From a virus: a DNA stretch of 64,000 bases. The notes under the pieces are model-generated. The model saw nothing but the letters and a program-made list of their open reading frames with translations. It made no database searches and was not told the origin of the DNA. The position numbers and the translations under genes are program-made. This document shows, piece after piece, positions 5,874 through 53,676 of the stretch; positions within the stretch are counted from its first letter, which is position 1, and each line of letters opens with the position of its first letter. Location of the stretch: the IMG/VR virus record IMGVR_UViG_3300028399_000005, positions 1 through 64,000 of that record, one strand, 5' to 3'.

Positions 5874-5882
5874 TGGCGAAAA

Positions 5883-36590: not shown

Positions 36591-36731
36591 ATATATGTAT
36601 ATATATGCGATATATAACTATTTTTGTTTATTAAAACAATGGATGAGCTGGGGGTCTCTTCGCGGTTAAGTGGGGTATGTCTTTATCACAACCTTTATAT
36701 AATACTGTTTCCTATATTATATTGAGGAAAC

Positions 36732-37031: not shown

Positions 37032-37064
37032 TAGCCATACTTCTCCTTCTTCTTTTCTCCGTTT

Positions 37065-38090
37065 TTAGCCCGTTTTTCGCATTCTTTTCAACGCATGCTT
37101 CTTCTCGAGCCACTCGCGGGTCTTACGAACGTGGTACGCCGTAATTTCTTGCTTGAAGTCAAGCCAGCGAAGGTACGAGAAAAGCTCGACGATCTCGTGC
37201 TCCGTCAGCCCCGCTTCGAGAAGGAAAGCCGTTGCGCTCACCCTCGCCTGGTGGTCGGGGTTCAACGCGGAGATCCGTTTCACGAGCGTTTTCGGCATTA
37301 CTCGCCCAAAGAAACGAAGAACAGCTTCTCGAGACGTTTTCTCCTCGAAATCGAGCATTGCTACTTGTTTCTGCTCTAAAGCGACGTTCGAAATCTCGAC
37401 AGAGCGGGTTTCCTCGATTTCGAAAGCGTACCCCTCGTACTCGTTCACGAGCTTTCCCAGCGAGACTTTGCTCCCCGCCCCACACGGCGCGACGAAATCG
37501 TCGATGTCCTCGACGTTCGTCGTGAGAAAATCAATGAAAGAAACAGATTCTTCGATTTGTGTATTCGTCGCCACGTAACAAAAACTGTTCGTGTCGTAGC
37601 GGTACGTCCCTGGGATGCGCGTCAAGCGTCGTAAGTCCCCGTGCACGTGCGGGTCGGCGCTTTCGAGCTCGAGCTTCGCCACGATCCCGTTCTGCGCTTG
37701 CAACACGCTCGAGACCACGCTCGACATGTTCTGGGGGTTCACGAGCACGGGTTCGAGAGAGACATAGACGTGGAATCCTTTCTTCCCCGAGAAAACGACA
37801 AAGTGTTCGACTCCTTGCTCGTGCAACTCCGCGTCGAGCATTTTCATGTCCCGATACGCGCTCGCACCGTCGAGGTCGAAAAAAAGTTTGTCCACGACGA
37901 TCTCGGGGTAGGAATACACAGAAACGAACTTCGGGCTCTTGTGCGGGCTTTTCGCCACGAGCTCAAGGATCTGCTTCTGCGAAGAAACGGGGTATGGTAA
38001 CCTTGCAGGGAAGCCGACTTCCCGCCGTTGTGTTTTCGAAGTTGGAAAAAGCGCCTTGAGGGCGTTCTTGAGGTGTTCCCGCAAGATCAT
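37065..38090 (-). CDS. priS: archaeo-eukaryotic primase with fused PriL/PriX-like C-terminal domain
   Basis: FFDLD, FSGKKGFHVY, RLTRIPGT; C-terminal HQARV...DFKQEITAYHV. Confidence 0.88.
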   Translation of the reverse strand: MILREHLKNALKALFPTSKTQRREVGFPARLPYPVSSQKQILELVAKSPHKSPKFVSVYSYPEIVVDKLFFDLDGASAYRDMKMLDAELHEQGVEHFVVFSGKKGFHVYVSLEPVLVNPQNMSSVVSSVLQAQNGIVAKLELESADPHVHGDLRRLTRIPGTYRYDTNSFCYVATNTQIEESVSFIDFLTTNVEDIDDFVAPCGAGSKVSLGKLVNEYEGYAFEIEETRSVEISNVALEQKQVAMLDFEEKTSREAVLRFFGRVMPKTLVKRISALNPDHQARVSATAFLLEAGLTEHEIVELFSYLRWLDFKQEITAYHVRKTREWLEKKHALKRMRKTG

Positions 38091-38749
38091 CTCATCACCT
38101 CGACGCGTTGCTTCTTCGAGAGCGCAATGAATTCGGCGAGCCTCTCGCTGAGAAAATGCTCCCAATTGCGGGCAAGACTGTGATATATGATCTTGAAGTC
38201 CCGTCCATGAGCGTCCTTCTTCGGGGTGATATATACGTGTAGCGCGTGAGCAACTTCATGAAGGATCGTGTCGACGATCTCGTACGCTTTTGTTGTAGCG
38301 ATCCTACCACTTTTGAACGAGTTTACGTAGATTTTGATCATTGATTCGGCGGGATCGTTGAAATGTTGACCGTAGTATGGTTTTTTCTCCAAAGAAAACT
38401 CTATCGGGAGCGCCAGGCTGGCCGATCTTACGGCACAAAATCGCGGGTCGTGGAAGAAATGCTCGAACATCGTCATCGCGAAGATTCGGGGGAGCGGGAT
38501 TAGGGCGATTTTTACGAGCGACGGTAGCCGTTCGATCGCCCCGCGAAACTCGATCGCTACTCTTAGCCACTTGAAGGGGAAGAACTCAACGTTGATTGAT
38601 CGCCCGTCGTCGCTTATCTCGATTTTCTCATGATACGGTTCGAACGTTTTTTTCAAGAAGTCCGTCGGTTTTAGCCCGAGTCTTCGTTTCCATTCTTCAT
38701 GTTCGTATGGCGTGAAACACTTCATTGGGCTACGTTTCGTGGCGATCAA
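38087..38749 (-). CDS. SprT-like zinc metalloprotease
   Basis: TILHEVAH...HGRDF. Confidence 0.75.
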   Translation of the reverse strand: MIATKRSPMKCFTPYEHEEWKRRLGLKPTDFLKKTFEPYHEKIEISDDGRSINVEFFPFKWLRVAIEFRGAIERLPSLVKIALIPLPRIFAMTMFEHFFHDPRFCAVRSASLALPIEFSLEKKPYYGQHFNDPAESMIKIYVNSFKSGRIATTKAYEIVDTILHEVAHALHVYITPKKDAHGRDFKIIYHSLARNWEHFLSERLAEFIALSKKQRVEVMR

Positions 38750-38791
38750 TAAAAAAATAATCGCTCGTTAGAACGGAAGGGCGGAAATAGC

Positions 38792-39247
38792 TTAGATTGC
38801 GTCGTAAACGACGAATTCCACGAAATTGCTTCCTTCGAGCCTGTGAACCAGTATTGCTGGGTTCTCGATCTTCGCCCTCGCAAAAGCGTCGCTATACATG
38901 AATCGGAACACTTCGAGCAACGCAAAATCAACGACCCGCTTGTATCGTTGGTACAACGTTATGAACATGTCTTTGACGACGTTGATGTCTGGGATGTCGT
39001 GAATGCGCGGTAGCGCAAGAACCTCGAACGAGCTTGGGCGCACCCGAACCTCGCTCTGGAACATGAAGAACATCAAGAGCCAGTCTATGACGAATTTTTT
39101 GTGGTTGAAGACATGCTCTGCTTCTTGCAAGTAGTACAACTGACTGACGGTTCGTATCCCTTCGATCTCGTCCGCAAACTTCTCGTCTATTAGTTTCCTT
39201 ACTTCTTTCTCAATTTCGTCGAGCGATTGAAGTTTCCTTTTTGTCAT
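38792..39247 (-). CDS. hypothetical protein
   Basis: 151-aa ORF; class II box at 39288. Confidence 0.7.
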   Translation of the reverse strand: MTKRKLQSLDEIEKEVRKLIDEKFADEIEGIRTVSQLYYLQEAEHVFNHKKFVIDWLLMFFMFQSEVRVRPSSFEVLALPRIHDIPDINVVKDMFITLYQRYKRVVDFALLEVFRFMYSDAFARAKIENPAILVHRLEGSNFVEFVVYDAI

Positions 39248-39309
39248 ACTTGAAAAAAGCGAGGATATAATAAAAAAGATTGCCCGCCGTTCTAACGGCG
39301 AGGGCGTTG

Positions 39310-40233
39310 CTACTCTGCCAAAGAAGAAGGATTAGAAGGAGGCAACATGGCTGTGATCTGTGTCGGGGGCAACGTAGCGCCGTTCACGATCTCGCTGTTG
39401 GCCCAGAAACGGATATTGTTAATAGTTTCTTTTTCTTCGTACACAACACCTATAAAATTGAATTCTGGCGCGACAATGGTCTTCAACGCACCTTCTACGT
39501 ATGGTGCCCGTATGAATTCGGAATATGCTATTGGGGGGAAACCAGCGCTTTCACCGAGTTGCTTGAGCTCGCCTGTAGTAACGGTGTGGGCGACTACGTC
39601 GTTTCTGAGGATGCTCTCTTGCGTGATGTTGTAATCCGCGCCGAGAGAGATCTGCCCCTTGAAATCAACACCCAAGATTAGGTTCGCGTTCTTGTTTGGG
39701 AGCCAGGGACTGAAGTCGGCGGACACAACCTCAAAGACGAACCATGGGAATCTCTCGTAAATAGACCTTGGGAGAAGAAATGGTTCTATACGAGTTTGCG
39801 AGAACTTGCTCGGGCGTAGGTCTTCGACGGAGCGCAACGCAACAATGATGTAGCGGTCGGGGCGTTCCGCGTCCGAGATCTTCAAGAATCCTTCTTTTTC
39901 CACTGCGAACTCAATGATCTCTGCGTCCCGCATCGCTTTCTTGAAGAAATCGTAGGCGTCGCTGGTCTTGAAGGCGATGTCTATGCAGTCCCCTTCGAGG
40001 GAGCTGGGATCTTCGGGGGCGTCGAGCTCTATCGGGAACTCGAGGGTCTCGGCGACTTCTTGCGGGGCGAAACCCAAGAGCAAGAGATCCACAAGGTTTG
40101 CGTTCGTCGCGAGGATACCGTTCTTCGTGAGCTTTAGGAGCAACACGGGGTCTCCGATCCTCAAGAACGCCTCGGTTGTGTTGTAGGGTAGCGAGAACCG
40201 CAACCCTTCCAGGGAGAGTTCTTGTTCTATCAT
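39310..40233 (-). CDS. probable divergent PCNA-like sliding clamp
   Basis: LKLTKNGILATNANLVDLLLL and FFKKAMRDAEIIEFAVEKEGFLKI echo PCNA segments; RFC genes are present. Confidence 0.5.
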   Translation of the reverse strand: MIEQELSLEGLRFSLPYNTTEAFLRIGDPVLLLKLTKNGILATNANLVDLLLLGFAPQEVAETLEFPIELDAPEDPSSLEGDCIDIAFKTSDAYDFFKKAMRDAEIIEFAVEKEGFLKISDAERPDRYIIVALRSVEDLRPSKFSQTRIEPFLLPRSIYERFPWFVFEVVSADFSPWLPNKNANLILGVDFKGQISLGADYNITQESILRNDVVAHTVTTGELKQLGESAGFPPIAYSEFIRAPYVEGALKTIVAPEFNFIGVVYEEKETINNIRFWANSEIVNGATLPPTQITAMLPPSNPSSLAE

Positions 40234-40343
40234 GCGTTTTGTTCTTCCGAGGGGAGAAATAAAAACGCAACGTCCCGTTATAACGAAGAGACCGAGCGAT
40301 AAAAAGGAAAGGCGGGGAAGGGAGCTCGTCGGCGAGGGTGCGA

Positions 40344-40901
40344 TCAATCGAGTGGCTCAAGGTAGTAGTCCACAACGTGCCCCCCGCTCGGGGTGGCGTT
40401 GTAGCCTACCTTGACAGCATCGGGGTTTTGCGGGGCATTGATGACGGTCTTGTGCGATGTGAACTTCGAGCGGTACGGCTTGATAACGTAGTGCGGAGCG
40501 TCATTTTCGTCGGCGAATCTTGGCTCTCGGACGGAGATGACGGTAACAACGTCGTCGTCGGCAGGCTCTGGCTTGTAGGCGAGGACTTGGTTCTCGCTCA
40601 TTCTCGTGCTCGAACAGACGGTGCTGAGTACTTGCGCTTTCTTGGTGTAGCTTAGGCGGACTTGTTGGTTCACGTAGATCGTTACGGGCACGGCTTCCCC
40701 GCGCATCAGTGCTTCGACTATGCTTTCGTCCTCAAATTTGAAGACTGGCCCAGCTCTGACGGCATAGCCTTGTTTTACATAGTACTTGTTCCCGCTCGCT
40801 TTGACGAGCTCGAGCGACGGGTCGAGCGATAAGACGCAATCGACCCTTCGTTTGGTTCTCTTTGTTTGTTTGGTTCGATTTCTTACTTCATCTATGTTCA
40901 T
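40344..40901 (-). CDS. hypothetical protein
   Basis: ATGA-coupled operon gene. Confidence 0.7.
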   Translation of the reverse strand: MNIDEVRNRTKQTKRTKRRVDCVLSLDPSLELVKASGNKYYVKQGYAVRAGPVFKFEDESIVEALMRGEAVPVTIYVNQQVRLSYTKKAQVLSTVCSSTRMSENQVLAYKPEPADDDVVTVISVREPRFADENDAPHYVIKPYRSKFTSHKTVINAPQNPDAVKVGYNATPSGGHVVDYYLEPLD

Positions 40902-41161
40902 TCTTTACCACCTTTTTCTTTTTCCTTGACGAGTTCGTCCGCTTGTTTGATGAAACGGCGGAGTTTCTCGTCGACAGAAGCGTAATACTCGAGTGTTTCT
41001 CTCGAGATTTCGTACGCCTCGTTGGCGTCATCGTTGAGGCTTGCAATAGCCTCGCCGATCTCTTCCTCTGTACCATAAATGTAGTACAGAGTGGCGTCGC
41101 TGAGGACGATCTTGCCGTCCTCAATGGGGTGCTTGCATAGGAACGCTAGTCGTTTACTCAT
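40898..41161 (-). CDS. hypothetical protein
   Basis: AGGTGA RBS before ATG 41161. Confidence 0.65.
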   Translation of the reverse strand: MSKRLAFLCKHPIEDGKIVLSDATLYYIYGTEEEIGEAIASLNDDANEAYEISRETLEYYASVDEKLRRFIKQADELVKEKEKGGKE

Positions 41162-41187
41162 TTTCGACTCACCTTTCCGCTCTATCT

Positions 41188-41751
41188 CTAAAACTTGAAA
41201 TAATAGAGGTAGAGGTTGTTCGTCATGGGCACGTGCACGTTTCGGAAGAACACGCGCAAGAACCGCTCGGTTACTCGCGTGCTCATCCCGAGGTGCAACG
41301 CGATGTTCCTTCTCGTGGGGACTCCGTCGAACGACCGAACCCTTTCGAGAAGGCTCACAAAGAAGCCAGGGGACATGCTGGCTGTTGCATGCTCCTTGAT
41401 GGCTTCGATGATCATTTTCTTCCGCCCAGAGTAATTGATTGTAAAAACTCTGGGAGAAAGTTGGTAGTAGCGTGGGTTGTTGCGTAGCATCTTCTTGGCG
41501 GTTACGTGGCTGACTCCCTTCTTCTTCGCGTACCAACTTGCGGAGAAAACGAAGATAGAAGGGATAGAGTGGATCGTCTCGTTGCAGACCTCTGCCCAGC
41601 GGATCTTGAGGTACTGAGCTGAGAGGTAGAACGAACGCGGTATTGTTGAGTAGAAGACCCTATACTGCCTGTTTTTTACTTTTATCGTTTTCACGGGCTC
41701 GCGGTGGCGCTTGTACGCCAGAGTCTGTTTTTCGTCTCGTGGTATGATCAT
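41188..41751 (-). CDS. basic protein with C-terminal HTH (class I promoter)
   Basis: TRRNIALHLGMSTRVTERFL; leaderless start. Confidence 0.65.
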   Translation of the reverse strand: MIIPRDEKQTLAYKRHREPVKTIKVKNRQYRVFYSTIPRSFYLSAQYLKIRWAEVCNETIHSIPSIFVFSASWYAKKKGVSHVTAKKMLRNNPRYYQLSPRVFTINYSGRKKMIIEAIKEHATASMSPGFFVSLLERVRSFDGVPTRRNIALHLGMSTRVTERFLRVFFRNVHVPMTNNLYLYYFKF

Positions 41752-41862
41752 CAATTACATTATTACACATTGTATTATTTAAAGGTTGTGGTAATAAGAT
41801 GTTGTCCGCCCGTCGTTATAACGGTTCTTCAATCTTTTATTATCGGCGGCGAAAAGATACCC

Positions 41863-43842
41863 ATGAACGAACAAGACGAATCATTCGACCCAGAGAAAGT
41901 AGTAGCGAAAATTCTCGATCTTGCGCCGAAAACAGTCCTCATCATGGGAAAGATCGGCGAGGACGAAAGAAAGGCGCTTGAGCGCCACATCAAGGAAGAA
42001 TTCAAGAAGAGCGCCGAAAAGGAGAACGCCCACGCAGAACTACTCGGTTTCGCGGACTACTACGGACGGCACCAAAAATACGAAAAAACGAAGAAAGCAT
42101 TCGGCGACCGAATCGTCGAAGCCCTTGACAGAATCGCAACAAACCAAATAGTCGACATTCTCGAAGTGTACCGCCCATTGTTGCTCTCGAAATATTACAA
42201 CTTTACGCACTTGAACAAAAAAATAGACGGGAGGATCGCAGACATTCTCGTCCCCACGAATTTCGAGCGAGTCTTTCTATCTACACTGTTCGTCGGCGAA
42301 ATAACGCACTTGGCAACAGGCGCCGAGCTCGTGGGGAGTATTTCCCGTCCAGACCTCGAATTCAAGGCGAAAGAAAGCGATTTCGACGTTCGGGCGTTTT
42401 CCACGCACGAACTCACGTTCGCAACGGCGGTCGGTTTCACGCTCGAAAAAGTGTTCAAGCGTTTGCTCGCACGCGTTACGCAAACGGCGTATGAGAACGA
42501 CGTGCCAAACGTCGTGGCGACCGTTGATCGGTTCGTAGCGTCGATTAAAGGACGAGAACTCTTGCTCGAGCTCGTCGAAGACCCTGGCTTCGACTTGCAA
42601 GTGCGGGAATGGGAGAGCCTCGGAATGCTCGATGAGTCAGTCATCGATCCTCGAGAAGCCGTCCGCGAGCACGCCCTTCAAGAACCGACGGCGTCTTTCC
42701 GAACGTTGTTCTTGCCCTTCGACTCAAGGTTTTTCTCCCGCGAGAACAAACAACGCATGCTCGACCTCTTCGAGCATGATAAAGACGGTGCTGTCCTCGT
42801 CGGCGATAGCTACGTGGCCTTGCGCGTGCTTGCGGATGACGCTACCATTAACAAGAGCTTCGTCCAGACCATTTTCATCGATCCGCCGTTCAACAAGCCG
42901 AACGAGGCGAACTACAAGTATAGCGTCAAGATCGGCGACGACGTCTGGATTGCCATGCTCCGCTCAAGGCTTCGGCTCGCAAGGGAGCTCTTGCACGAGA
43001 CGGGCTCGATCTTCGTTCGATGCGACTATGAGGGCTCTCACTACGTCCACCTTCTTCTCGACGAGATTTTCGGCAAGAAGAATTTCCGCAACGAAATCGT
43101 CGTCAAGCGCTCGAACCGCATCAAGAGCCCGACGTCTCGCTTCTTGTCGTGGCACGACGTTGTGTTCTTCTATGCGAAAAGAGCGGACAGAGCTTTTTTC
43201 AAAGAGCTTGTCGTCGATGAAGAGGCACGCAATGGCTGGCGGGGAATGGACATGCCAGGCGATTCTTACGAGGTCGTCCCCTCGGGGCTCGAGTCATTAT
43301 TCGAGCCGTGGATGCTTGAGAAAGACTCTTATGAACAGACAGTTACTCGTGCGAGGCTGTTCTTCGGAAAACCTATCATGCCCCCGCCAGGGCGCAGATT
43401 CCCTTCCCAAGCAAAAATCAACGAAGAGATCGAGAAGGGCAATATTCGCTTTTCTCGCTCGGGGCGCCCGTTGATCCGCAAGCGTGGCTACAAGGTGCTT
43501 ACCGACGATTGGACGGACATTTTCGGCTACAAGAACCGCTTCGGGTTCACGACGGAGAACAGCGAGGAACTGCTACGACGCGTGATCATGGCAACTTCGA
43601 AGGAAGAGGACGTTGTGCTCGACTTTTTCGCTGGTAGCGGGACGACCCTTGCCGTGGCGCACAAGCTCGGGCGAAAATGGGTCGGCGTAGAAATCAACGA
43701 CCACGCTTTCGAGGTGCTCATCCCCCGCATGAAGAAAGTGCTGTTCTACGACGAAGGAGAGATCAGCTCGTTGAAAGAAGTCAGAGAAAAATACAACAAA
43801 CGCCGAGCTGGCGGGGTCTTCTACTATTACTCTTATGAATAG
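41863..43842 (+). CDS. large adenine methyltransferase (type III Mod-like, beta class)
   Basis: IDPPFN, DEIFGKKNFRNEI, VLDFFAGSGTT; no Res gene adjacent. Confidence 0.9.
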   Translation: MNEQDESFDPEKVVAKILDLAPKTVLIMGKIGEDERKALERHIKEEFKKSAEKENAHAELLGFADYYGRHQKYEKTKKAFGDRIVEALDRIATNQIVDILEVYRPLLLSKYYNFTHLNKKIDGRIADILVPTNFERVFLSTLFVGEITHLATGAELVGSISRPDLEFKAKESDFDVRAFSTHELTFATAVGFTLEKVFKRLLARVTQTAYENDVPNVVATVDRFVASIKGRELLLELVEDPGFDLQVREWESLGMLDESVIDPREAVREHALQEPTASFRTLFLPFDSRFFSRENKQRMLDLFEHDKDGAVLVGDSYVALRVLADDATINKSFVQTIFIDPPFNKPNEANYKYSVKIGDDVWIAMLRSRLRLARELLHETGSIFVRCDYEGSHYVHLLLDEIFGKKNFRNEIVVKRSNRIKSPTSRFLSWHDVVFFYAKRADRAFFKELVVDEEARNGWRGMDMPGDSYEVVPSGLESLFEPWMLEKDSYEQTVTRARLFFGKPIMPPPGRRFPSQAKINEEIEKGNIRFSRSGRPLIRKRGYKVLTDDWTDIFGYKNRFGFTTENSEELLRRVIMATSKEEDVVLDFFAGSGTTLAVAHKLGRKWVGVEINDHAFEVLIPRMKKVLFYDEGEISSLKEVREKYNKRRAGGVFYYYSYE

Positions 43843-44600
43843 CGCTTTTTGGGTTTGCCGACCACTCGGTCTCGCCATAAAAACAGCCCGCTCGTTTCCT
43901 TGCTCCCGAAGTGGTTGAACTCGCTGTCGAAAAACGTCGAGAGACGGGCGTTCTCCCATCCACCGTTGATTCTGGCGAGCTTTTCATAGACGGACGGCAC
44001 GGGGACATCGTGCTCGACAATGTAGGCCCAGACGTCTTTCGCCGTCCACTCGGCGATCGGGAACGCCGTGTCCGTGAACCCGCTCTTTTTCGGTTCTATC
44101 CACGTTCCCGTGCGTCGCTTCGCCTCGGCGATCCGCGCTCGGCGCTTCTGGGACTCTTGGGATCGTAGACCGAGGAAACAGACGTCCCAGCCGTGGCGTT
44201 TCACGGCTTCCGACAAACGGGGGAAAAACGGCGATTTAGCGATGTGTGATTCTCTTGCGGACGGTTTATCGCCCCCAGGCCTTTTCTCGTAACTATGGCG
44301 AGAAAAAGGGGCAATCTGGTCAATTCCTTGCAAGATCTCTTTCTCGATCCAACGGGGGATCAACCATTCGCCGTAGTCCCAGTGGCGAACCCAGACGTCC
44401 CTCTTGTACTGGACGACGAGATGGAGCATCGCCATGGAGTCCTTCCCGCCAGAGACGGCGACATAGGGGTTTTGATAGCTCGCCAAGACTCGGCGAATGA
44501 ACGAGCGGGACGTGGCTACCTTGCGCCGATACTCCGACGTGTTCGTGTGTAGGAGAAAGCCAGCGATGACGGGTTTCGGCATGAATTTGGACGGTTTCAT
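43833..44600 (-). CDS. cysH: CysH/PAPS-reductase-like protein of a type IV-B CRISPR locus
   Basis: PP-loop VSGGKDS, GLRSQES, PIAEWTAKDVWAY; ATG at 44600 overlaps the csf3 stop. Confidence 0.88.
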   Translation of the reverse strand: MKPSKFMPKPVIAGFLLHTNTSEYRRKVATSRSFIRRVLASYQNPYVAVSGGKDSMAMLHLVVQYKRDVWVRHWDYGEWLIPRWIEKEILQGIDQIAPFSRHSYEKRPGGDKPSARESHIAKSPFFPRLSEAVKRHGWDVCFLGLRSQESQKRRARIAEAKRRTGTWIEPKKSGFTDTAFPIAEWTAKDVWAYIVEHDVPVPSVYEKLARINGGWENARLSTFFDSEFNHFGSKETSGLFLWRDRVVGKPKKRYS

Positions 44601-45391
44601 TGCGCAAGACCTATTTTTTGCTTTACTTGGGCGGAGAGCTCGCACTTTGCGCCGACGGGGACGCACGCGTCGATGTTTCGTCTGTCCCAGTACGGCGGTT
44701 TCCAGGCGAGGTAGGCGAAGTCGTCGTATTCGTCGCAGTAGCGCGTCGGGATGGGTCGTAGCGCTTCTTTTGTTTTCGGGTTCCAGAAGCTCGCCTTGTC
44801 GGGGTTTGGCTTGATCTCGACATGGCTGACTTCGCCGAAGCCGTAGGCGGTCTTTTTCCCGAGCCCCGTAACGTGTGCTATGAGCGATAGCAAGGAGTAG
44901 GGCTTCGCCTCGACGAAGACGTCGGCGTATCGGGCGGAAATGTAGGGGATTCTGATCGAGTAGTTCTTGAACGTCCCAGAGCCGAGGCTGATCTTGCTCT
45001 TCTTCCCGCCGATCTTGTGGGCGTCTGGCTCGTGGAAGCGTTTGTAAACATACTCGATGTTCGCCCGCTCCTCGACGTTGATGAGCTTCCCGTCGGCGTC
45101 CTTGAATAGGATGACAGAGGAGTGATAGAAGTACGTTTGGCGGATTGGCATGGGCAACGCTCGGACGCGCTTTCCGAGGGGGTCGTTCGAGGGGAGCATG
45201 TAGTAGTCTTGCCCGAGGGTGAGGCGGAGCAACATGTGCGCCACGAGCCCGTCGAAGTTGATCCACGGGTGCGTGATCATGACGGGCGCTTTCAAGTGGA
45301 ACCGCACGAGGACGTGCGCCCACTCTTCGCCTTTGAGCGTGGCGTAGTACTCCGTCGGCGTGTCCGCGAGCAAGTATTGCCGTAGGAACAT
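44597..45391 (-). CDS. csf3: type IV Cas5-like subunit
   Basis: FDGLVA, Gly loop GLGKKTAYGFG, RPIP, PPYW. Confidence 0.85.
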   Translation of the reverse strand: MFLRQYLLADTPTEYYATLKGEEWAHVLVRFHLKAPVMITHPWINFDGLVAHMLLRLTLGQDYYMLPSNDPLGKRVRALPMPIRQTYFYHSSVILFKDADGKLINVEERANIEYVYKRFHEPDAHKIGGKKSKISLGSGTFKNYSIRIPYISARYADVFVEAKPYSLLSLIAHVTGLGKKTAYGFGEVSHVEIKPNPDKASFWNPKTKEALRPIPTRYCDEYDDFAYLAWKPPYWDRRNIDACVPVGAKCELSAQVKQKIGLAQ

Positions 45392-45395
45392 AGCG

Positions 45396-46286
45396 TCATC
45401 CCTTCTTCTTGAACGATGAGAAATCGATTTTCTGGGCATCAATCGCCTGCAAGAGCGCCAAGATGTCGTCTTGATTTTCTTCGACGAATCTTAGATACGT
45501 TTCTTCTTTTCCGAGTGCGCTCAAGGCAGTCTTGTCGTAGTCTGGACGCAACGCGCCGAGCCCGATGCTTGACTTCCCGCCGACGTAGCAATTGTTCTCC
45601 CAGATTCGGAACGCTCTTCGGAAGAACGCTTCTTCGACGGGCGTGGGGTCTTCGAGGACGAAAGCGTGCGTCAGCCTCGTGCCAGGGATCAAGACCTCGT
45701 ATTCGACGAGCATTTGTTGTGCTTGTTCGCCTTCGTCCCGCTCGGCTCTGAGCTCGTCTTTGCGGGTCTGGTAAGTGTCGCTCATGAGCTCGTGGAAACT
45801 GAATTCGGCGCCCCTAACCGTTGAAGGGTCGAACGTGATCCCTTCGAGCTCCTTGCAGATCGGGAAAGCGTTCATGACCTTGAGCTTTCCCGTGAACGCT
45901 TGGTTGAGGAAGGACGAGCCGAAAACACTAATGGGGGGCAAGAGGTATCGGATGGTCTTCCTCGCTTCGAGGTTGAGCGTCCCGCTGTCCTTCGAGGACA
46001 CTTTCTCGAGGTTCCCGCCCGAGTAGAAAAAGTGGTAGAGTCTGGCGGTCTCGAATCGGTGTCTTTGGCCCTCTCTGTAGCCCACGAGGTCGAGGAAGTC
46101 CTTCATGACGAGGCGTCGCAGGCGCCCTCTGATTGCATTTCCGCTGATGTAGGGCACTTCTTGGATCCCCTTGTTCGTGATCATTTCGATTCTTCGGAAC
46201 CCGATCGTGGATCCCGTTTTTTCGTTCCCGCCGTGGTGGACGGGGGAAAGAGCTGTCAATATTCCGCTGATTTTAATTGTCTTCAT
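45396..46286 (-). CDS. csf2: type IV Cas7-like backbone subunit
   Basis: ALSPVHHG, VPYISGNAIRGRLRR, SVFG, GGKSSIGLG. Confidence 0.9.
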   Translation of the reverse strand: MKTIKISGILTALSPVHHGGNEKTGSTIGFRRIEMITNKGIQEVPYISGNAIRGRLRRLVMKDFLDLVGYREGQRHRFETARLYHFFYSGGNLEKVSSKDSGTLNLEARKTIRYLLPPISVFGSSFLNQAFTGKLKVMNAFPICKELEGITFDPSTVRGAEFSFHELMSDTYQTRKDELRAERDEGEQAQQMLVEYEVLIPGTRLTHAFVLEDPTPVEEAFFRRAFRIWENNCYVGGKSSIGLGALRPDYDKTALSALGKEETYLRFVEENQDDILALLQAIDAQKIDFSSFKKKG

Positions 46287-46312
46287 TCTTTTTTTCTCAA
46301 CTCCTTTTGTTC

Positions 46313-46648
46313 TTACTTTTCATGGCACGAGCAATAGCAACCGAAGGCTTTGTAGCTCACGTTGCATCGCTCGGTGCATCTTCTGTCCGAGTGATGGCGA
46401 AACTCGAACTTTTTCTTGAGCGTCCACTTGACCTTTCTCGGCGAGTAGCCTACCGAGAAAAGCCCTTCGTGGGTCTTTTCTGTGGCAACGATCTCTTGGA
46501 AAAGCTCGTATTTCTCGAGCTCGCCGACGAGCGAGGAGACAACTTCCCGCAAGCGGTTCGTGATCTCGCTCGCCACGATTTGGGCGAGGAATACAAGATC
46601 GTCCCGTGATTCTTCGCCGTGCATTGTTTCTTCCGTTTCTTCCGTCAT
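46313..46648 (-). CDS. hypothetical protein inside the csf operon
   Basis: ATGA-coupled to the cas11-like gene; C-terminal Cys/His cluster. Confidence 0.6.
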   Translation of the reverse strand: MTEETEETMHGEESRDDLVFLAQIVASEITNRLREVVSSLVGELEKYELFQEIVATEKTHEGLFSVGYSPRKVKWTLKKKFEFRHHSDRRCTERCNVSYKAFGCYCSCHEK

Positions 46649-47073
46649 TCTTCATCATCCTTTGCTTTTCGTTGCTTTTCCTTCCGCTTCTCGCGTAGCA
46701 ACTGCGAGTATCTTCGAGCGAGCATCACGCAGAGCTGGGACTCCGTGCGGACGGTGTCGAGGAACTCGTCGGCGTATTTCTCCGCCTCGAGGATGAGCTC
46801 TGGCTCATCATGGAGCGCTTGGATGCTCAGCTGGTTGCAGAGCTTGTTCACGAACTTTGCAACGGTCGGCTTGCGGGAAGAGTTCTTGATTCTGTGCTCG
46901 AAAATGTCCGTGGCGATCTTGGACGTGCTCATCTGGTGCCAGTTCACTTGGTAGTAGACCCTTCCGAGAAGGGCGGAGATGAGCTCGTACACTCGCTTTT
47001 TTCTTGGCGAGACCCACGAGAGGTCTTGGCCTGGCAATATTTCTTCGAGGCTAAAAGTAGATTTCTGCGCCAT
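46645..47073 (-). CDS. cas11: type IV-B small subunit (Cas11-like)
   Basis: Helical 142 aa between csf1 and csf2; FVNKLCNQLSI. Confidence 0.65.
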   Translation of the reverse strand: MAQKSTFSLEEILPGQDLSWVSPRKKRVYELISALLGRVYYQVNWHQMSTSKIATDIFEHRIKNSSRKPTVAKFVNKLCNQLSIQALHDEPELILEAEKYADEFLDTVRTESQLCVMLARRYSQLLREKRKEKQRKAKDDEE

Positions 47074-47824
47074 AGACTTCGCCTTCTTCTTCTTTCTTTC
47101 GTTTTTTCGATTGCTTCTCGGGCTTCTTAGTATCTTTGCGGAGCGTCTTCATGGTCGTGAGCTTCTTCGGCGTATCCGTGCACTTGACGACGAGCTCCCA
47201 GGCGGGGTTCCCCGCGAACTTCTTCGCCTCGTAGTAGTGCTGTATCGCCCCGACCTCGACGAGCGTCTCGATGATCGAGCTGTTGGTCTCGAGCGTTTCG
47301 AGGCGCTTCTTCCCGAAAAATGGCATGAGCGCGTCGACGAGTCCCGTGATTTTCTCGTAGCTTCGTGGCGTGAACCGTGCGACGTCTTCTTCGAAGATCA
47401 CGACGAATCTGTTGATTGACCCCTCGTTCGACGGCGTGTTGATGGCGAACGGGTTCACGATCCATCCGTGCTTCTTGAAGCTCTTCGTTACGAAGATTGC
47501 GAAGGGCTCGTTTCGAGCGAGCGCTTCGGTGAGGACGTCCCGAAACTCGTTGAACTTGAACGCCTTGAACCTTGCGGGGGAAACAACCCAGTTCGTTTTT
47601 CGGACTGTCGCTTCTTTGAGCGCCCCCGCACAAAAAACGCAGAGCCCGTGGCCCGCTTTCAAGTGCTGGAATCCCGTGAAATTGCCCGAGACTACTCTCT
47701 TGATGTCCACGAGCTCGTCGACGGTCTCCATGCAAATATAGCACCTACCGTGGTGCTTTTCGCCCGAGATTGGCTCGATCATTTTTGCTTGTGCGAGCAG
47801 GCGTGGTATTGTGAGAATCATCAA
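47051..47824 (-). CDS. csf1: type IV large subunit (Cas8-like)
   Basis: N-terminal CYIC...LCVFC Zn finger, PFAIF...KKHGW; first gene of the operon. Confidence 0.8.
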   Translation of the reverse strand: MMILTIPRLLAQAKMIEPISGEKHHGRCYICMETVDELVDIKRVVSGNFTGFQHLKAGHGLCVFCAGALKEATVRKTNWVVSPARFKAFKFNEFRDVLTEALARNEPFAIFVTKSFKKHGWIVNPFAINTPSNEGSINRFVVIFEEDVARFTPRSYEKITGLVDALMPFFGKKRLETLETNSSIIETLVEVGAIQHYYEAKKFAGNPAWELVVKCTDTPKKLTTMKTLRKDTKKPEKQSKKRKKEEEGEVYGAEIYF

Positions 47825-48158
47825 GCAATCGACGATTTATCGAGAATCGCTGTATAATAGCCTTGCTCGCCGTTATAACGATACTTTTCTTTCTTTAGGT
47901 GAACTTGTTATAACGAGGCGAAAATCGTTTAAGAATCGGGCGGAAAACATACAAATATGAAGATCGAAAAACTATCAAGATACTTTAGAAAAACAGAAGC
48001 GCGCCAGAGACCCATGAGCGGTTTTCAGAAGCACGTTCGCGCGTTCCGTCGTTTCCGATTTCGTGCGGTCATGTCTTCATAGGCGAAGTAGGCAAAGAAA
48101 GGAAAAAAGGGCGGAGCAGAGCTCCGAAAGGCAAAGGCGGAGAGGAAGCGGTAGGCGC

Positions 48159-48290
48159 TCAGAGCTCGAGGTTGTCGAAGAATTCGCTAAATAAGACCGC
48201 TAAGAGCTCATCGTCGAACTCTGACAGCGCCTTCGCTTCGTAAAGCTTTGAAGAATTGTCGTCTTTTGAGAAGTTGTCGTTCTCGCTCAT
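48159..48290 (-). CDS. 43-aa acidic peptide (leader cassette 1)
   Basis: ATG after class I promoter and structured leader. Confidence 0.6.
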   Translation of the reverse strand: MSENDNFSKDDNSSKLYEAKALSEFDDELLAVLFSEFFDNLEL

Positions 48291-48344
48291 GGTACATCCC
48301 TGTCGTCGGGCGGGTCTCCTTCCCCCTTGCGGGGGTAACCCACC
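48291..48344 (-). promoter_or_regulatory. conserved structured 5' leader, copy 1
   Basis: GGTGGGT-TA-CCCCC-GCAA-GGGGG-AAGGAG-ACCCGCC-CGACGAC. Confidence 0.75.
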
Positions 48345-48550
48345 AATATAATATAGGAAGGAGAAATATAAAAAGGTTGTGGTAAAGGTAATCAATATGT
48401 TTGTATTTTTCTGATAAAAAATAAGAGAAACTTGGCAGGCGGTTTATTACAAAAAAATGACAAAAAATAGCGCGACGGAAGCGGTAGCAAAGAAAGAAAA
48501 GAAGGGGCGAAGCAAAGCTCCGCAAAGTTAGGAAGGCAAAGTTGAAGGGC

Positions 48551-48958
48551 TTATAAGTCCAGTTTTCTACCGTATGCTTCGAGGAGCGCCGTAAGCTCCA
48601 AATCTATTAGGCCTCTCTCATTTGAGAGGAAGCCCAATAGATTCAAGGTATGGCGGGCGTCTAAGAAGTCGTCCACCTTCGATCGGAAGGCGATCCGAAG
48701 GAAGGTATAGACGATGTGGTAGGCGAGGTCTCGGGCGGTCATGCCCTTCGTCTCATAGACCGCTTGTGCGAGCTCGAAGGCTCTCACAATGGTCTCGTTC
48801 ATCTCGGCTTCGAACTCTTCTGGATTCATGCGTTGCGATAGCGCAGACGCAATGAAGTCCTGGAAGAGCCCGTCTATTTCGTTCAAAGCGTGCTCGTCTA
48901 TCGGGGCGTCGCCCGATAATGGACGGACACGCTTAGCGTCGAACGTTTCGTCTGCCAT
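48551..48958 (-). CDS. acidic helical protein (leader cassette 2)
   Basis: ATG after class I promoter and structured leader. Confidence 0.75.
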   Translation of the reverse strand: MADETFDAKRVRPLSGDAPIDEHALNEIDGLFQDFIASALSQRMNPEEFEAEMNETIVRAFELAQAVYETKGMTARDLAYHIVYTFLRIAFRSKVDDFLDARHTLNLLGFLSNERGLIDLELTALLEAYGRKLDL

Positions 48959-49013
48959 AGTCCATCTCTCCGTCGTCGGGTGGTGTTCCTTCCCCGCATG
49001 GGGGTGCACCACC
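48959..49013 (-). promoter_or_regulatory. conserved structured 5' leader, copy 2
   Basis: GGTGGTG-CA-CCCC-CATGC-GGGG-AAGGAA-CACCACC-CGACGAC. Confidence 0.75.
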
Positions 49014-49094
49014 AATATAATATAGGAAGTGGTAATATATAAACTTTGTGGGAAATTGGTAGATAATTGCACTCTAAAAGTGTTGCGAGGAGCA

Positions 49095-49190
49095 AGAAAA
49101 CGAATCTCGCCTGTCCGCCCGCTGGGGGTGGCGGGTGTTTACGTCAATCAAACGTCTATTCTTTTAGACAAGCGACTGATTGGGGTACTA
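49095..49190 (-). ncRNA. candidate pseudoknotted small RNA
   Basis: TATA-like element ~25 nt upstream; CAATCAG/TTGATTG, TCGCTTGTC/GACAGGCGA and CCCGC/GCGGG pairings. Confidence 0.4.
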
Positions 49191-49336
49191 TTTACGCCAA
49201 TTTGAAAAGTTGCTAATTAATAAAGGAATTAATTAACAAAACTTGCAGGGAATTCTGCGTGCGGAAAAATATAATCATTAAAAAACGGCGATCGATCGAA
49301 TCAAGGAAAGAAGAAGGCGAAGAAAGGCGGGGTTTG

Positions 49337-49738
49337 TCAAAGGTTGTTATAAACTATCTCGAGCGCTCTTCGGATTGTGAGTGTCTTCGGTGGGCGCTTG
49401 TAAGGGGCGTAGCCGACGTCCCATACGAGCGTCCCTCGAATGCTAACCCGTGCACTCCCCTCGAAGAGGAGCTCGTCGTCTGGACTGTACGCCTTGACAA
49501 CGATGTCGTGCACGGTAACGCTGTATTCCGTGCCAGGCCATGGTCTGCCCTTGTAGCGCTCGACTTCTACAAGGGCGATCTCGAGCCGTACCGAGCCCTT
49601 GTTCGAGTCCACGAAAAGCGTGAGCTCGTCAAGGGCGTCGTAGTCGTCGCGTAATACGAGGGCTACCCCCTCGAAGCCGTTCCCAGCCACGAAGGAGTAG
49701 CCCTTCAACTTAGAGTTATAGGCTAACTTCATTCTCAT
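49337..49738 (-). CDS. beta-rich hypothetical protein (leader cassette 3)
   Basis: ATG after class I promoter and structured leader. Confidence 0.75.
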   Translation of the reverse strand: MRMKLAYNSKLKGYSFVAGNGFEGVALVLRDDYDALDELTLFVDSNKGSVRLEIALVEVERYKGRPWPGTEYSVTVHDIVVKAYSPDDELLFEGSARVSIRGTLVWDVGYAPYKRPPKTLTIRRALEIVYNNL

Positions 49739-49790
49739 AGTATCACCGTCGCCGAGCGAGTCTCCTTCCCCCATAAGGGGGTAACCCGCT
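49739..49790 (-). promoter_or_regulatory. conserved structured 5' leader, copy 3
   Basis: AGCGGGT-TA-CCCCC-TTAT-GGGGG-AAGGAG-ACTCGCT-CGGCGAC. Confidence 0.75.
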
Positions 49791-49894
49791 AATATAATAT
49801 ACGCAACGGTAATATATAAGTTTTGTGGGAATTTGGTTAGAAGATGCGTAAAAAATATGAAAAAAATGTGCAAAAATATGAAGCATAAATCATG

Positions 49895-50251
49895 CTAAGA
49901 ATGATGACGAACGCCTTGTTCGCGAAGGTCGTCGATGACCTCGGCAAGCATCTCTTGAGCCTCGTCGATGGTCGCAAGCATCCCTTCGAGGACGGCGAAC
50001 TCGTCGAGCTCGGGGTTCCCAGAAAAGACGCGAACCCAAGGAACGACGGGCATCATGACGAAATCGTCGTAGCGCAGAACTGCGATGACTTTCTCAGTCG
50101 TCTTGTCCTTGACCGTAGCGGTCTTCGCAGTGCGTTCGTACTCTATAATTACCCTGTCAAATTCCTCAACAGCATCGAGCGCTTGGTATATCCTATCTAT
50201 AACGACATTGCTAATGTCGAACGACGATTCTATATAGATCTGTTTCATCAT
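49895..50251 (-). CDS. acidic hypothetical protein (class I-like promoter)
   Basis: Leaderless start after a degenerate class I promoter. Confidence 0.7.
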   Translation of the reverse strand: MMKQIYIESSFDISNVVIDRIYQALDAVEEFDRVIIEYERTAKTATVKDKTTEKVIAVLRYDDFVMMPVVPWVRVFSGNPELDEFAVLEGMLATIDEAQEMLAEVIDDLREQGVRHHS

Positions 50252-50354
50252 GACTAATAATACCAGCCCAGAATACAAAAACTTTGTGGAATTTAAAACC
50301 AGCTATAAGAGAACACCACAAAATCTAAATATTTCAACTTCGCATAGTATATTG

Positions 50355-50873
50355 ATGAAGACCAGATTACTATCCAAGGGCGGATGGCGTATCCACGTCG
50401 TCGCCATGAAAATACTTGAAGAATTCATGCCACGCACGATCCCTTGCCCCGCGTGCGGACAAGGGGAAGCAACGCTCGACCCAGACTTCTCGGGCGAACG
50501 CCCTACCGTAGCGTACGCCCACGAGGGCCACAAGACCACAACTGACGTTTTCGACGACGGTCTCAAACAAAAATTCGAGACCGCCCGCGAGCTGTTCCGC
50601 GAGCTACGGCTCGCCTCGCTGGCGGACGTGTTCGAGCTCACCGAAAAACAAACCCGAGCACTCGAAAAACTCGTCAAAGAAGAGTTTCTCCGACATGTAG
50701 CCGACGGGGGCTTTCGAGGGTTCTCCGAGAGGAACGGCCCGATCGACCGCCACTATCTCAGAGCGTTGCGCAAGAAAGGGCTCTTGCGCCACGAAAACGG
50801 TAAATACTTGACTAAGGACTGGGTCGCCACGTACGTGGTCGTCTTCGGAGTGGAATCCCCGATCGGGCTCTGA
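50355..50873 (+). CDS. Zn-ribbon plus winged-helix hypothetical protein (class I promoter)
   Basis: CPAC; LRALRKKGLLRHENGKY. Confidence 0.7.
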   Translation: MKTRLLSKGGWRIHVVAMKILEEFMPRTIPCPACGQGEATLDPDFSGERPTVAYAHEGHKTTTDVFDDGLKQKFETARELFRELRLASLADVFELTEKQTRALEKLVKEEFLRHVADGGFRGFSERNGPIDRHYLRALRKKGLLRHENGKYLTKDWVATYVVVFGVESPIGL

Positions 50874-50892
50874 CGCGTCGACAGGCGGTGTA

Positions 50893-51696
50893 CTATTTTT
50901 TTCATATTTTTCGCGTTATTTTTCATATTCTTTTCATTTTTTAATTCCTATCGAGAAGGTCTGAATCTATTAAATTCTAAAGAATCGATGATTATTTTTT
51001 ATTTTTCAATGGGGGGTGCGATAGGCATAATTATGTTCCTCGAGAATCTACGAAGCGCCGAAACTCGGAAAAACAGCAACAAGAGATTTTTTTGACTTTT
51101 TCGCGTTATTTTTCACATTCTTTTCAATTTCTAAAATTGTTTCTTACGCTTTGAACCCTTTAAATTTTGGATTTCCCATGATTATTTTTTATTTTTCAGT
51201 ACCCCCTGCGATAGGCATGCCCCATTGGTGCCCCCTATAATAATATAATATAGGGTACAGGCAGTGGCGGTTTCGGGAATAGTTTGGAATCATATACTTT
51301 AGTATATGATATATAATTAAGAATAAGAATCTGGGTTGATTCTAACCTATCGTATATAGTATTGAAAATAATAAAAAAATAATAAGAAAATAGTAAAAAA
51401 TGAAAAATTAGAAGCCCTTGTAGGCATTTAGAAAACTGAAAATAATGTGAAAAATAACGCGAAATATTGAAAAAAATAAACTTGGAATATAGGGTATGAT
51501 TTTTGCTTTTTTCTTAGTTTTTTAGGGTTTCAGGCTTTGGTATTAGGAATCAAGAATCTATACGCGATCGCGGGGGGTACTGAAAAATAAAAAATAATCG
51601 TCGATTCTTTGGAGTCATGAGTTGAGCGTTGTGTTTATTGCGATTCATGATTCTGAAAAAAATGCGCGAAAAAAGGTAAAAAATTTTAAAAAATCG
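50893..51696. repeat. AT-rich iteron-containing region B (inverted copy of 2795-3625)
   Basis: Same boxes in mirror order, e.g. 51572 GGGGGGTACTGAAAAATAAAAAATAATCGTCGATTCT is the reverse complement of 2885-2920. Confidence 0.85.
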
Positions 51697-51882
51697 TTTG
51701 TGCGGTCGAGGGGCTGTCTTCTCAAAACTCGGGGCTGTAGTCGCGAAAAACAAGAGATTGGCGGGGCGAGTTTTCGGCGACCCGCGATTGATTGTGGGAA
51801 ACACGAACATCTACGGACGCTCCGAAACCTCGTTCTAACAACTCGTAACCGTTTTTTAAGCGGTTTTCGAGAGTAGCACAGA

Positions 51883-52431
51883 ATGATGCTCGATAATGCA
51901 AGACTCGATGAAATGATTAGAAGAGCCCGTGAACGGCGGGAAAAGCGAGAAAAAGCGATACTGCAAGAAATAACGCGCAACGCGAGGACGCCACGGTTCT
52001 TCCCCGTTGCCGAGCGCCACATTGGCGAGGGCCTCAAGCGGGAGTTCTTGAACTCCGCAGAAGCTCGGAAGATGCCTCGCACGCTTATCGACCTCGTGGA
52101 AAACGTTGCCCCCTCGGCGAAGCCGATTTTTTCAAAGTACACGCTCAGCATTCGCCCGCTCCCGAAGTGGATCGGGGAGCGCAACTGGCAGGCGCTGACG
52201 AAGTACTACAAGCAGTGGTGGTTCGAGTGGCGGGACAGAATCTGGCTCTTCCATGCGGGGAGCAGTGCGTTGCAGTTGCGGGACGTCTATCGTCTCGAGG
52301 TCGTGGCGGAGCACGAGAGGCTCCCGATCGGCGGGATTTTGTTGCTCGAGCTCTATCGCATGGGGCGCCCCGCCCGCAAGTACTGCAACAAGAAAGGAAT
52401 CCCGTACTATGATTATTTGACACTTCCGTGA
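51883..52431 (+). CDS. hypothetical protein
   Basis: 182-aa ORF; class II box at 51831. Confidence 0.7.
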   Translation: MMLDNARLDEMIRRARERREKREKAILQEITRNARTPRFFPVAERHIGEGLKREFLNSAEARKMPRTLIDLVENVAPSAKPIFSKYTLSIRPLPKWIGERNWQALTKYYKQWWFEWRDRIWLFHAGSSALQLRDVYRLEVVAEHERLPIGGILLLELYRMGRPARKYCNKKGIPYYDYLTLP

Positions 52432-52523
52432 AAACGGGAAAATAATATGTTTTTTTTAGTCGCTCGTTAGAACGATAATAAACGCTATTATAATTTCTGT
52501 TTAAAAACGCATTTTGGTGAGAA

Positions 52524-53676
52524 ATGGGAATCCGATTCATTCCAAAAAAAGAATGTGATGTGGGTTTAGCTCGAAATGGAGTATTGGACTTCGGTAAAAA
52601 GAAACTTCCTACTCCCTTTCTTTGGTTTGGCTTATCAAATCGAGAATCTGTAGTTTTTCAAAAAACAGTATTTGAAAGTGCGATGATCGAAGGAATCATG
52701 GCAAATGCATACGACCTTATGTTTCAAGATAGGACTGGCTCTCGAACTGAAATGGTCAAAGAATTGTCTCGCTCAGGGCTCGTAGTAAAATGTGATAGCG
52801 GGGGTTACCAAATACTTAAGAGAGGGAAAAAAATCGATCGATCCAAAGTTCTGAGGTTTCAAGAAGATTTGAATTGCGATTTGATGGTTCAACTCGATTA
52901 TCCCATATTAGGTTCTGATCCTCGAGAACTTAAGAAAAAACATATTGATAAAACCCTCAATAATCTGGAATATGCTTTGAAAACAGCTAATCGTCCAGAA
53001 AGAATTGTTCCAACTATTCATGGACACGATTCCGAGTTATTGCGTTATCAAGCAAAAAAAAATTACAGATCTCCTTGGCGAAACCCCGCCTATTATTAGT
53101 GTTGGTTCTTTGGTTCCTCTACTTTTTAATTCAAAAGGAGCAAAAGGGGTTGGAGGTAAAGCAAAAGCTTTGGAAGTTATAAGGATTGTTCGAAAACTTT
53201 TTCCAAAAACAATGATTCATGCTCTCGGTATTGGGGGCGCTCTTACATATCTCGCTATATATTTTGGCGCAGATAGTTTCGATAACAACGGTTGGATACA
53301 AAAAACTGGTTTCGGCGTAATTCAAGTTCCTGGATCATCGGATCGGTTTCTTGGAACCCCGCCGAATGGCAGAAAGAAAATTGATACTGACGAAATAGCC
53401 TATCATAGATGGCTTGAATGTGTGTGCCCAGCTTGTAGGAGTTCTTCTAATAGAAGTGTATTCATTGGACGAGATGAGAGCGCAAGGCTAAATCGAGGAA
53501 TACATAACGCCTATACATTTCAAGCGGAAATTTGGAGAGTAAGGAGATATATCCATGAAGGCCAATATATCAACTTTATAAAAGAGAGAATGAAAAATTC
53601 TATATATTTGCGGATTTTACAAGAGGAATTAAATCGTAACGATCATGAAAAAATATTTAACGATGTGTGGTTTTAG
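52524..53676 (+). pseudogene. tRNA-guanine transglycosylase (TGT/DpdA) family gene split by a frameshift in an A9 run
   Basis: TP, CDSGGYQ, QLDYP in ORF1; HALG, DSFD, CxCxxC...HN in ORF2; removing one A at 53054-53062 joins them. Confidence 0.8.

Follow-up and report, generated by a model that had tools for sequence, protein, structure and literature searches.

What might a virus gain from a CRISPR effector complex that comes without a CRISPR array? Type IV-B is the one class 1 CRISPR subtype that lacks a known function or RNA partner (PMC13676074). The question is raised by six genes located at positions 43833-47824 of the first 64 kb of the IMG/VR virus record IMGVR_UViG_3300028399_000005, a stretch of 64,000 nucleotides hereafter called the window; the whole record is 83,942 bp long. 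Our analyses indicate that these genes very probably represent a functional subtype IV-B operon. On balance, we lean towards the view that an intact, expressed-looking operon without an array is present in the DNA-replication and DNA-modification part of the genome of an uncultured tailed virus from a hydrothermal vent, with a thermophilic archaeon as the probable host; it may operate by the mechanism proposed below.

As outlined in a preliminary description made from the nucleotide sequence, the operon comprises six open reading frames (ORFs) with tight junctions, namely csf1, cas11, an ORF that we call orfX, csf2, csf3 and a cysH-like gene. All six lie on the minus strand (Table 1). The csf1 and cas11 frames overlap by 23 nt. 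An ATGA overlap joins the cas11 stop codon to the orfX start codon, another one joins the end of csf3 to the beginning of the cysH-like gene, and the remaining gaps are 26 nt between orfX and csf2 and 4 nt between csf2 and csf3, with the start of the latter taken at ATG 45391, 4 nt past the csf2 stop codon. Hidden Markov model (HMM) searches supported the gene families proposed earlier, since PADLOC type IV models matched four of the genes and the Pfam PAPS_reduct model matched a fifth. The cas11 product could be aligned with 19 relatives at 23-33% identity. Csf1, a protein of 256 residues without a Pfam domain match, harbours a Cys4 zinc-ribbon signature (CxxC...CxxC), of which C28 and C31 are kept in 37 of 38 sequences and C62 and C65 in all 38.

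Related loci were collected using an alignment of Csf2 as the query, which yielded 42 loci from IMG/VR and 9 from species-representative genomes; a single-sequence Csf2 scan of viral contigs returned nothing, and likewise a query of metagenome contigs with P0002, one of the nearest Csf2 relatives. phmmer searches with the six window proteins against the ORFs of these 51 loci detected csf2 in 51, csf3 in 45, cas11 in 44, cysH in 44, csf1 in 43 and orfX in none. Of the 51 loci, 34 have all five known genes together, in the same order; among the 42 viral loci, 29 do so. When the large terminase subunit (TerL) encoded in the window was compared with five other IV-B viral records, no close relative was found and only one of the five gave a weak match, indicating that the viruses carrying the cassette do not have closely related terminases. 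A second strain was identified in a vent metagenome of another study. One contig aligns with 44229-46399 at ~93.5% DNA identity (over 2167 bases, 141 differences were counted, plus 4 gap letters), and a further contig aligns with 46623-47238 with 25 differences. Insertions and deletions in the covered stretch are limited to the loss of 4 nt from the orfX-csf2 spacer and an in-frame gain of 6 nt in the csf1 tail. Csf2 is also present at 98% identity in public protein data.

The operon thus looks intact and functional, judging from its open and coupled frames, its conserved motifs and the preservation of the frames in a diverged strain. The view that it is a functionless remnant carried along by the virus, to which the lack of a known function, of an array and of a nuclease would lend some credit, is extremely unlikely. 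Decay is at odds with six open, tightly coupled frames and conserved catalytic and structural motifs, with the open frames of the diverged strain, in which 13 of 19 cysH differences, among the differences listed, fall at third codon positions, and with the retention of the same five-gene set in other viral loci, the checked records of which contain no close relative of TerL.

The earlier assignment to subtype IV-B is upheld by gene content, as csf1, cas11, csf2, csf3 and a cysH-like gene are all present, and the sequence motifs agree with it. Subtype IV-A systems have DinG, Cas6/Csf5 and an array but no cas11, whereas here cas11 is present and neither Helicase_C_2 nor Cas6 nor an array was detected. 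Subtype IV-C is characterized by a large subunit that is Cas10-like and carries an HD nuclease domain, in contrast with the short Csf1 with its Cys4 motif and the CysH-like gene found here. The likeness to the IV-C1 systems of Thermococcus onnurineus and Pyrococcus abyssi (PDB 11fs; PMC13676074) consists in the best-scoring solved Cas7 structure, the presence of Cas11 and an association with thermophilic archaea. The IV-B system of the Mycobacterium sp. JS623 megaplasmid (PDB 7JHY; PMC7937560, PMC8175902) has the same csf1, cas11, csf2 and csf3 genes and a cysH-like partner. It also resembles our operon in that its carrier is a mobile element and that it has no array, cas6, helicase or nuclease. 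However, that carrier is an actinobacterial plasmid, whereas ours is a virus, probably archaeal and thermophilic, and our operon differs by the additional orfX, a Lys-rich Csf1 tail and very diverged sequences.

Virus-borne IV-B systems have already been published, in prophages, in some lytic phages and in the archaeal Fuxivirus (PMC10848311, PMC7038947). The latter, a 32-kb tailed virus of Bathyarchaeia, is similar to our virus in that it is tailed, archaeal (probably so in our case) and from a hot environment and has a cysH-csf3-csf2-cas11-csf1 cluster; its genome, like ours, further encodes a DNA methylase and a Cas4-like nuclease that stands alone (PMC10848311). Compared by description, our virus is larger (at least 84 kb) and has a family B DNA polymerase (PolB), an archaeo-eukaryotic primase (AEP)-like protein, AcrIII-1, a protein resembling queuine tRNA-ribosyltransferase (TGT) and orfX. 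Fuxivirus in turn harbours a mini-array of two repeats and one spacer beside its IV-B genes (PMC10848311), of which our record has none. As compared by sequence, two features are particular to our locus, orfX and the Lys-rich tail of Csf1.

Tandem Repeats Finder and three repeat scans, the strictest of which looked for 22-mers with at most 2 mismatches and a spacing of 45-120 nt, revealed neither a CRISPR array nor a two-repeat mini-array, be it in the window or across all 83,942 bp of the record. Similarly, no Pfam match over the cut-off was obtained in the whole record for Cas1, Cas2, Cas6 (two models) or a DinG-type Helicase_C_2 domain, and the sole Cas6 signal corresponds to the glycine-rich loop of csf3. 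The claim that the window lacks an array, cas6 and adaptation genes consequently holds, with the reservation that a stand-alone Cas4-family nuclease gene is present (Table 1), and the search of the rest of the genome for arrays that the preliminary description called for gave the same result across a record that is ~77% complete. In the last 20 kb of the record (L001), PADLOC found no Cas gene among the ten longest ORFs, out of 44 with at least 120 codons. The operon is flanked by a methylase gene and small ORFs; RecD was not searched for by HMM. The only repeat found is CTACTTT, a 7-nt unit that recurs in a long tandem array at ~18200-18420 of L001 (82.2-82.4 kb of the genome). Three IV-B-bearing IMG/VR records are rated 100% complete, one of them with terminal repeats, and none of the three has a typical array. 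One of them contains a 3-copy repeat with a 51-nt period, far from its csf genes.

Several observations weigh against our identification of an array-less IV-B operon with the role proposed here. The NCBIfam equivalogs for Csf2 (TIGR03115, E 2.3e-12) and Csf3 (TIGR03116, E 1.6e-15) both scored far under their curated cut-offs, indicating that these proteins are diverged members. When the Csf2 profile was compared with the PDB, the Cas7c subunit of a IV-C complex (11fs, E 1.8e-28) outscored the Csf2 subunit of a IV-B complex (7jhy, E 1.9e-17), and the subtype assignment therefore rests on gene content and not on a reference phylogeny. orfX is tied to the Csf complex by its position alone. The functions of IV-B and of CasCysH were both still called unclear in September 2026 (PMC13676074), and this operon alone does not settle what IV-B does. 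No spacer-like match with 100% identity over 30-40 nt was found between positions 36001-56000 of the window and 441 genomes, 401 of one phylum and 40 of another, and the matches of this segment in those genomes correspond to AT-rich low-complexity sequence or gene homology only. Finally, ~23% of the viral genome may be missing, so that the absence of an array and of cas6 is not proven.

The last point leads to an alternative in which the system is guided after all, by an array, perhaps accompanied by cas6, located in the unassembled ~23% of the genome, in the manner of the Fuxivirus mini-array. The record is indeed linear and 77% complete according to CheckV, the two-repeat mini-array of Fuxivirus does lie beside IV-B genes (PMC10848311), and in the related locus L039 two 20-nt copies are found 71 nt apart just upstream of csf1 (5838-5935), which might represent either a mini-array or paired operator sites. 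We nevertheless regard a guided system as very unlikely. No repeat pair is present in our locus or in the 83.9 kb, 47 of the 51 related loci have none, the three complete IV-B viral records lack a typical array, and the absence of arrays is the defining norm of IV-B (PMC8175902, PMC7038947).

If the operon is an array-less IV-B system, as we favour, its CysH-like enzyme calls for an explanation. The PP-loop, SGGKDS at residues 50-55, was retained in 40-41 of the 41 sequences aligned. In contrast, the single Cys residue, in the motif WDVCFLG, is neither C-terminal nor conserved, and no Cys column reaches 30% in the alignment of these 41 sequences. True PAPS/APS reductases (CysH) have a C-terminal catalytic Cys, and since it is missing here the protein is probably not a sulphate reductase. 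Its scores with the NCBIfam cysH models are far under the cut-offs. A PP-loop without a catalytic Cys corresponds to the published signature of CasCysH (PMC8175902). The AlphaFold2 model of the protein has a predicted local distance difference test (pLDDT) score of 87.5 and a predicted template modelling (TM) score of 0.87, and its Foldseek neighbours include the PAPS-reductase-like FMN adenylyltransferase domain of FAD synthase, PAPS/APS reductases, CysD and the tRNA-thiolation enzyme TtuA (E 7e-9 to 1e-6, TM ~0.5). All of these enzymes either act on the alpha-phosphate of ATP or bind substrates that are linked to AMP. Given the missing catalytic Cys, adenylyl transfer would be the most economical chemistry for the CysH-like protein. 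This reading agrees with the proposal that CasCysH performs AMPylation or generates a second messenger (PMC13676074).

For the whole operon, we infer a complex architecture, an adenylyl-transfer chemistry, a timing of expression, a biological role and a part for orfX, which together make up a tentative scheme that may well prove wrong. By homology to the solved IV-B complex, Csf2 and Cas11 would form intertwined filaments on an RNA of ~55-60 nt that would not be a virus-encoded crRNA, with Csf3 and the zinc-ribbon protein Csf1 placed at the filament ends. The co-translated CysH-like PP-loop enzyme would use the alpha-phosphate of ATP to adenylate a substrate. The virus would deploy the system from a promoter under palindrome control, which is also placed ahead of two DNA methylase genes and of the polB-side region, and would use it against host defences or competing mobile elements instead of for adaptive immunity. 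The fact that intact viral copies keep the Csf complex and the CysH-like enzyme without an array points to such a role in virus-host or inter-element conflict. What this copy adds is a carrier, a vent virus that is thermophilic and probably archaeal, and a promoter motif common to DNA-modification and replication-side genes.

Which RNA the filament would hold is where two further explanations diverge from this scheme. In the JS623 complex, the Csf2-Cas11 filament contains heterogeneous RNAs of ~55-60 nt, and crRNAs represent ~0.12% of the reads (PMC7937560). According to a hypothesis already published (PMC7038947) and also raised in the preliminary description, the complex might capture crRNAs; the viral Csf proteins would load mature crRNAs produced by the host Cas6, thereby starving type I or type III effectors or redirecting the guides. 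In line with this idea, the virus has an AcrIII-1-family gene, implying that its host probably has CRISPR immunity, and a Cas6 gene is present between csf3 and cysH in some viral IV-B relatives, such as locus L017. Its own authors graded it as unlikely, though (PMC7038947), and I-E crRNAs that were co-expressed and correctly processed were not enriched in the JS623 complex (PMC7937560). Moreover, crRNA capture leaves the nearly invariant CysH-like enzyme without a role, and the record has no cas6. We also consider it unlikely.

Another conceivable partner is RNA of the virus itself. The complex would then assemble on the virus's own structured small RNAs, for instance tRNA-like ones, and CysH would act on the RNA or on its pairing partner. 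This would be consistent with an Rfam tRNA match with a ~47-nt insert in the window (Table 1), not called by ARAGORN, and with the presence of the tRNA-adenylating enzyme TtuA among the nearest folds of the CysH model. However, the tRNA-like RNAs and the operon are linked neither in position nor in conservation. In addition, the occurrence of the five-gene set in most of the viral loci, with no close TerL relative in the five records checked, indicates that the system does not depend on the RNAs of this particular virus. Assembly on viral RNA thus appears improbable, more so than crRNA capture, and we retain the scheme of an adenylating enzyme coupled to a filament deployed in conflicts.

orfX gave no family match in Pfam, NCBIfam, PADLOC and PHROGs. 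When 1,835,955,588 representative proteins were searched exhaustively with HMMER, two relatives were retrieved, P0121, with 92% identity, and P0122, a protein of 96 residues with 41% identity (E 7.7e-9). Residues H86, C91, C104, C106, C108 and H109, a C-terminal cluster, are invariant in the three sequences, which also have in common the motifs ELxKYEL and T-KT-E-LFS-G-SP-K. The Cys/His cluster suggests metal binding. The N-terminus is acidic, and an alternative start codon corresponds to M9, at 46624. AlphaFold2 predicts a long helix (residues 8-56) and leaves the C-terminus unmodelled (mean pLDDT 63.7). In the ESM Atlas, we found no usable feature match for the protein, and its model there has a pLDDT of 0.51. 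Scans of viral and metagenome contigs with a profile built from the orfX alignment revealed no locus. The possibility that orfX is a duplicate of cas11 was discarded, with a BLASTP E value of 23 and an hhalign probability of 0.5%.

The location of orfX is unusual as well. The cas11-csf2 junction spans 359 nt in our operon and is occupied by orfX, whereas the two genes are separated by at most 22 nt, without interruption, in 44 of 44 relatives. In other virus-borne IV-B cassettes, inserts are found at the csf3-cysH junction instead. That junction is variable, with 442-4091 extra bases in 17 of 43 relatives, and it is minimal in the window. Ten insert ORFs sampled from eight loci comprised two family 2 glycosyltransferases (GT2), one Cas6, one weak methylase-like protein, three PAPS_reduct+DUF3440 proteins and three proteins without identity. 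The Cas6 gene belongs to L017, an 82-kb IMG/VR viral record, and locus L040 has an ORF of the same size in the same place.

We conclude that orfX is a real, rare gene, and its position argues for co-expression with the complex. Most simply, its product would be a lineage-specific accessory subunit or regulator. A more specific conjecture, for which we see only a slim chance, is that it acts as a specificity or regulatory subunit that chooses the RNA, viral tRNA-like or host, for the Csf filament, with CasCysH adenylating that RNA or its target. Were this correct, the operon would give natural access to the substrate of type IV-B systems. As lineage-specific features, both orfX and the Csf1 tail could serve as experimental handles.

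The Csf1 tail is a Lys-rich extension of ~40 residues (47051-47175) beyond the NPxWE-type conserved end of the protein, and it terminates with a short acidic-aromatic peptide. It is lacking in all 43 related Csf1 ORFs listed, among which only that of L039 has an extension, a different one. Docking to PCNA through this tail was considered and rejected, as the sequence does not fit the canonical pattern of the PCNA-interacting peptide (PIP) box and no PCNA_N match was obtained in the record.

Homologues of Csf2 amount to 170 at E <=0.001, the nearest one past the sister strain having 58% identity. We built a quick tree of 59 rows, restricted to the relatives found here, after dropping pieces shorter than 200 residues and duplicates. 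In this tree, Csf2 belongs to a well-supported clade of eight metagenome proteins. The sister clade (Shimodaira-Hasegawa-like approximate likelihood ratio test support 88) is composed of proteins from a Desulfurococcales metagenome-assembled genome (MAG), Infirmifilum and a Methanocaldococcus plasmid, together with one Alphaproteobacteria MAG contig.

The preliminary description had placed the operon under a 'class II promoter', and this does correspond to a real, recurrent class of motif. The palindrome CGTTATAACG upstream of csf1 occurs in eight exact copies in the window for 0.05 expected. All eight sites are intergenic, with a T/A-rich box 7-11 nt further on at least one strand, and a second copy with 9 of 10 matching bases is also found upstream of csf1. 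The TATA-like box of csf1 is TATTATAC. Other CGTTATAACG sites precede two DNA methylase genes of the window (at 41814 for the one convergent with the operon) or lie in the intergenic region on the polB side (22788). The operon may be co-expressed with the replication genes, as the preliminary description proposed. A separate recurrent motif, TATATTATATTG, has 11 matches with at most 3 mismatches for 0.1 expected; it precedes the small genes just upstream (48340, 49009) and not csf1.

Some additional elements were noted in this upstream region. The two small genes begin with a TATATTATATTGGTGG motif and a CCCC...GGGG hairpin ahead of AAGGAG, and each is followed by a near-repeated terminator-like element consisting of a short GC stem and then a T-rich tract. 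Directly upstream of the csf promoter, a very acidic ORF of 43 residues, without any family match, has its own strong promoter-like motif.

Table 1. Positions of the csf operon, its upstream elements and other features mentioned in the text (window numbering unless a locus is given; L001, last 20 kb of the record)
Feature	Position	Strand	Remarks
csf1	47051-47821	-	Type IV large subunit (small, Cas8-like); ATG start; ORF listing begins at TTG 47824; PADLOC Csf1_0_IV, E 9.5e-21
cas11	46645-47073	-	Type IV small subunit; PADLOC Cas11_0_IV, E 9.2e-24
orfX	46313-46648	-	111 residues; no family match
csf2	45396-46286	-	Cas7 backbone subunit; PADLOC Csf2_0_IV, E 4e-65; Pfam RAMPs, E 7.3e-11
csf3	44597-45391	-	Cas5; PADLOC Csf3_0_IV, E 1.7e-43
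cysH-like	43833-44600	-	Pfam PAPS_reduct, E 7.5e-16; phrog_2302, E 2.8e-25
Palindrome CGTTATAACG	47871-47880	-	Candidate operator or upstream promoter element; 50 bases before csf1 ATG
Second palindrome copy	47906-47915		9 of 10 bases
TATA-like box TATTATAC	47852-47859	-	Putative function; 11 nt after palindrome, 30 nt before csf1 ATG
Acidic ORF	48159-48290	-	43 residues
Terminator-like elements	48080-48155, 48480-48550	-	One after each of two small genes
DNA methylase	41863-43842	+	Type III-like, N6/N4; convergent with operon, 3' ends overlap by 10 nt
DNA methylase	18844-19620	-	N6/N4-type
DNA methylase	L001 16381-17100	-	N6/N4-type
PolB	23148-25724		
Cas4-family nuclease	8713-9618	+	PD-(D/E)xK; PDDEXK_1, E 2.1e-22; Cas_Cas4, E 2.1e-7, over cut-off
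AcrIII-1/DUF1874 homologue	12543-12830	-	STIV_B116-like; E 2.9e-29, over cut-off
tRNA match	27732-27849	+	Rfam, 42.2 bits; span 118 nt, insert ~47 nt
TGT family gene	52524-53676	+	Two overlapping ORFs
SNF2-type helicase	L001 13424-15076	-	DpdE/ZorD-like PADLOC matches, 2.1e-26
Cas6 of related locus	L017 9569-10270	+	Between csf3 and cysH; Cas_Cas6_C, 7.7e-14

The viral nature of the carrier, also put forward in the preliminary description, was borne out by genes for TerL, a portal-MuF fusion, HK97-type head proteins including the major capsid protein, and PolB. The single IMG/VR record is linear, with 51.7% G+C. Among its other products are proteins resembling an AEP primase (weakly), SprT and a DUF3987 helicase, as well as an AAA ATPase. 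A megablast search with the operon against a phage collection gave no match, and the sole Csf2 tblastn match among isolated-phage records is in Skermania phage SPI1, with 27% identity. The best tblastn matches of PolB are in haloarchaeal tailed viruses, at ~22% identity, and ANMV-1 is among the TerL matches. Both data sets that hold this DNA are labelled as hydrothermal vent metagenomes. Together with the place of Csf2 in the quick tree and the AcrIII-1-family gene, these observations suggest that the host is probably a thermophilic archaeon.

Several other genes of the virus were noted. The AcrIII-1 homologue suggests a host that uses cyclic-oligoadenylate type III CRISPR signalling. The Cas4-family nuclease is stand-alone and distant from the csf operon. 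At least three N6/N4-type DNA methylase genes are present in the virus. The TGT family gene is read as two overlapping ORFs corresponding to the N- and C-terminal halves of the profile, which could be due to misassembly, to a frameshift or to the gene being split, and the enzyme that it encodes might modify DNA in the manner of DpdA. The last 20 kb of the record encodes an SNF2-type helicase with DpdE/ZorD-like matches.

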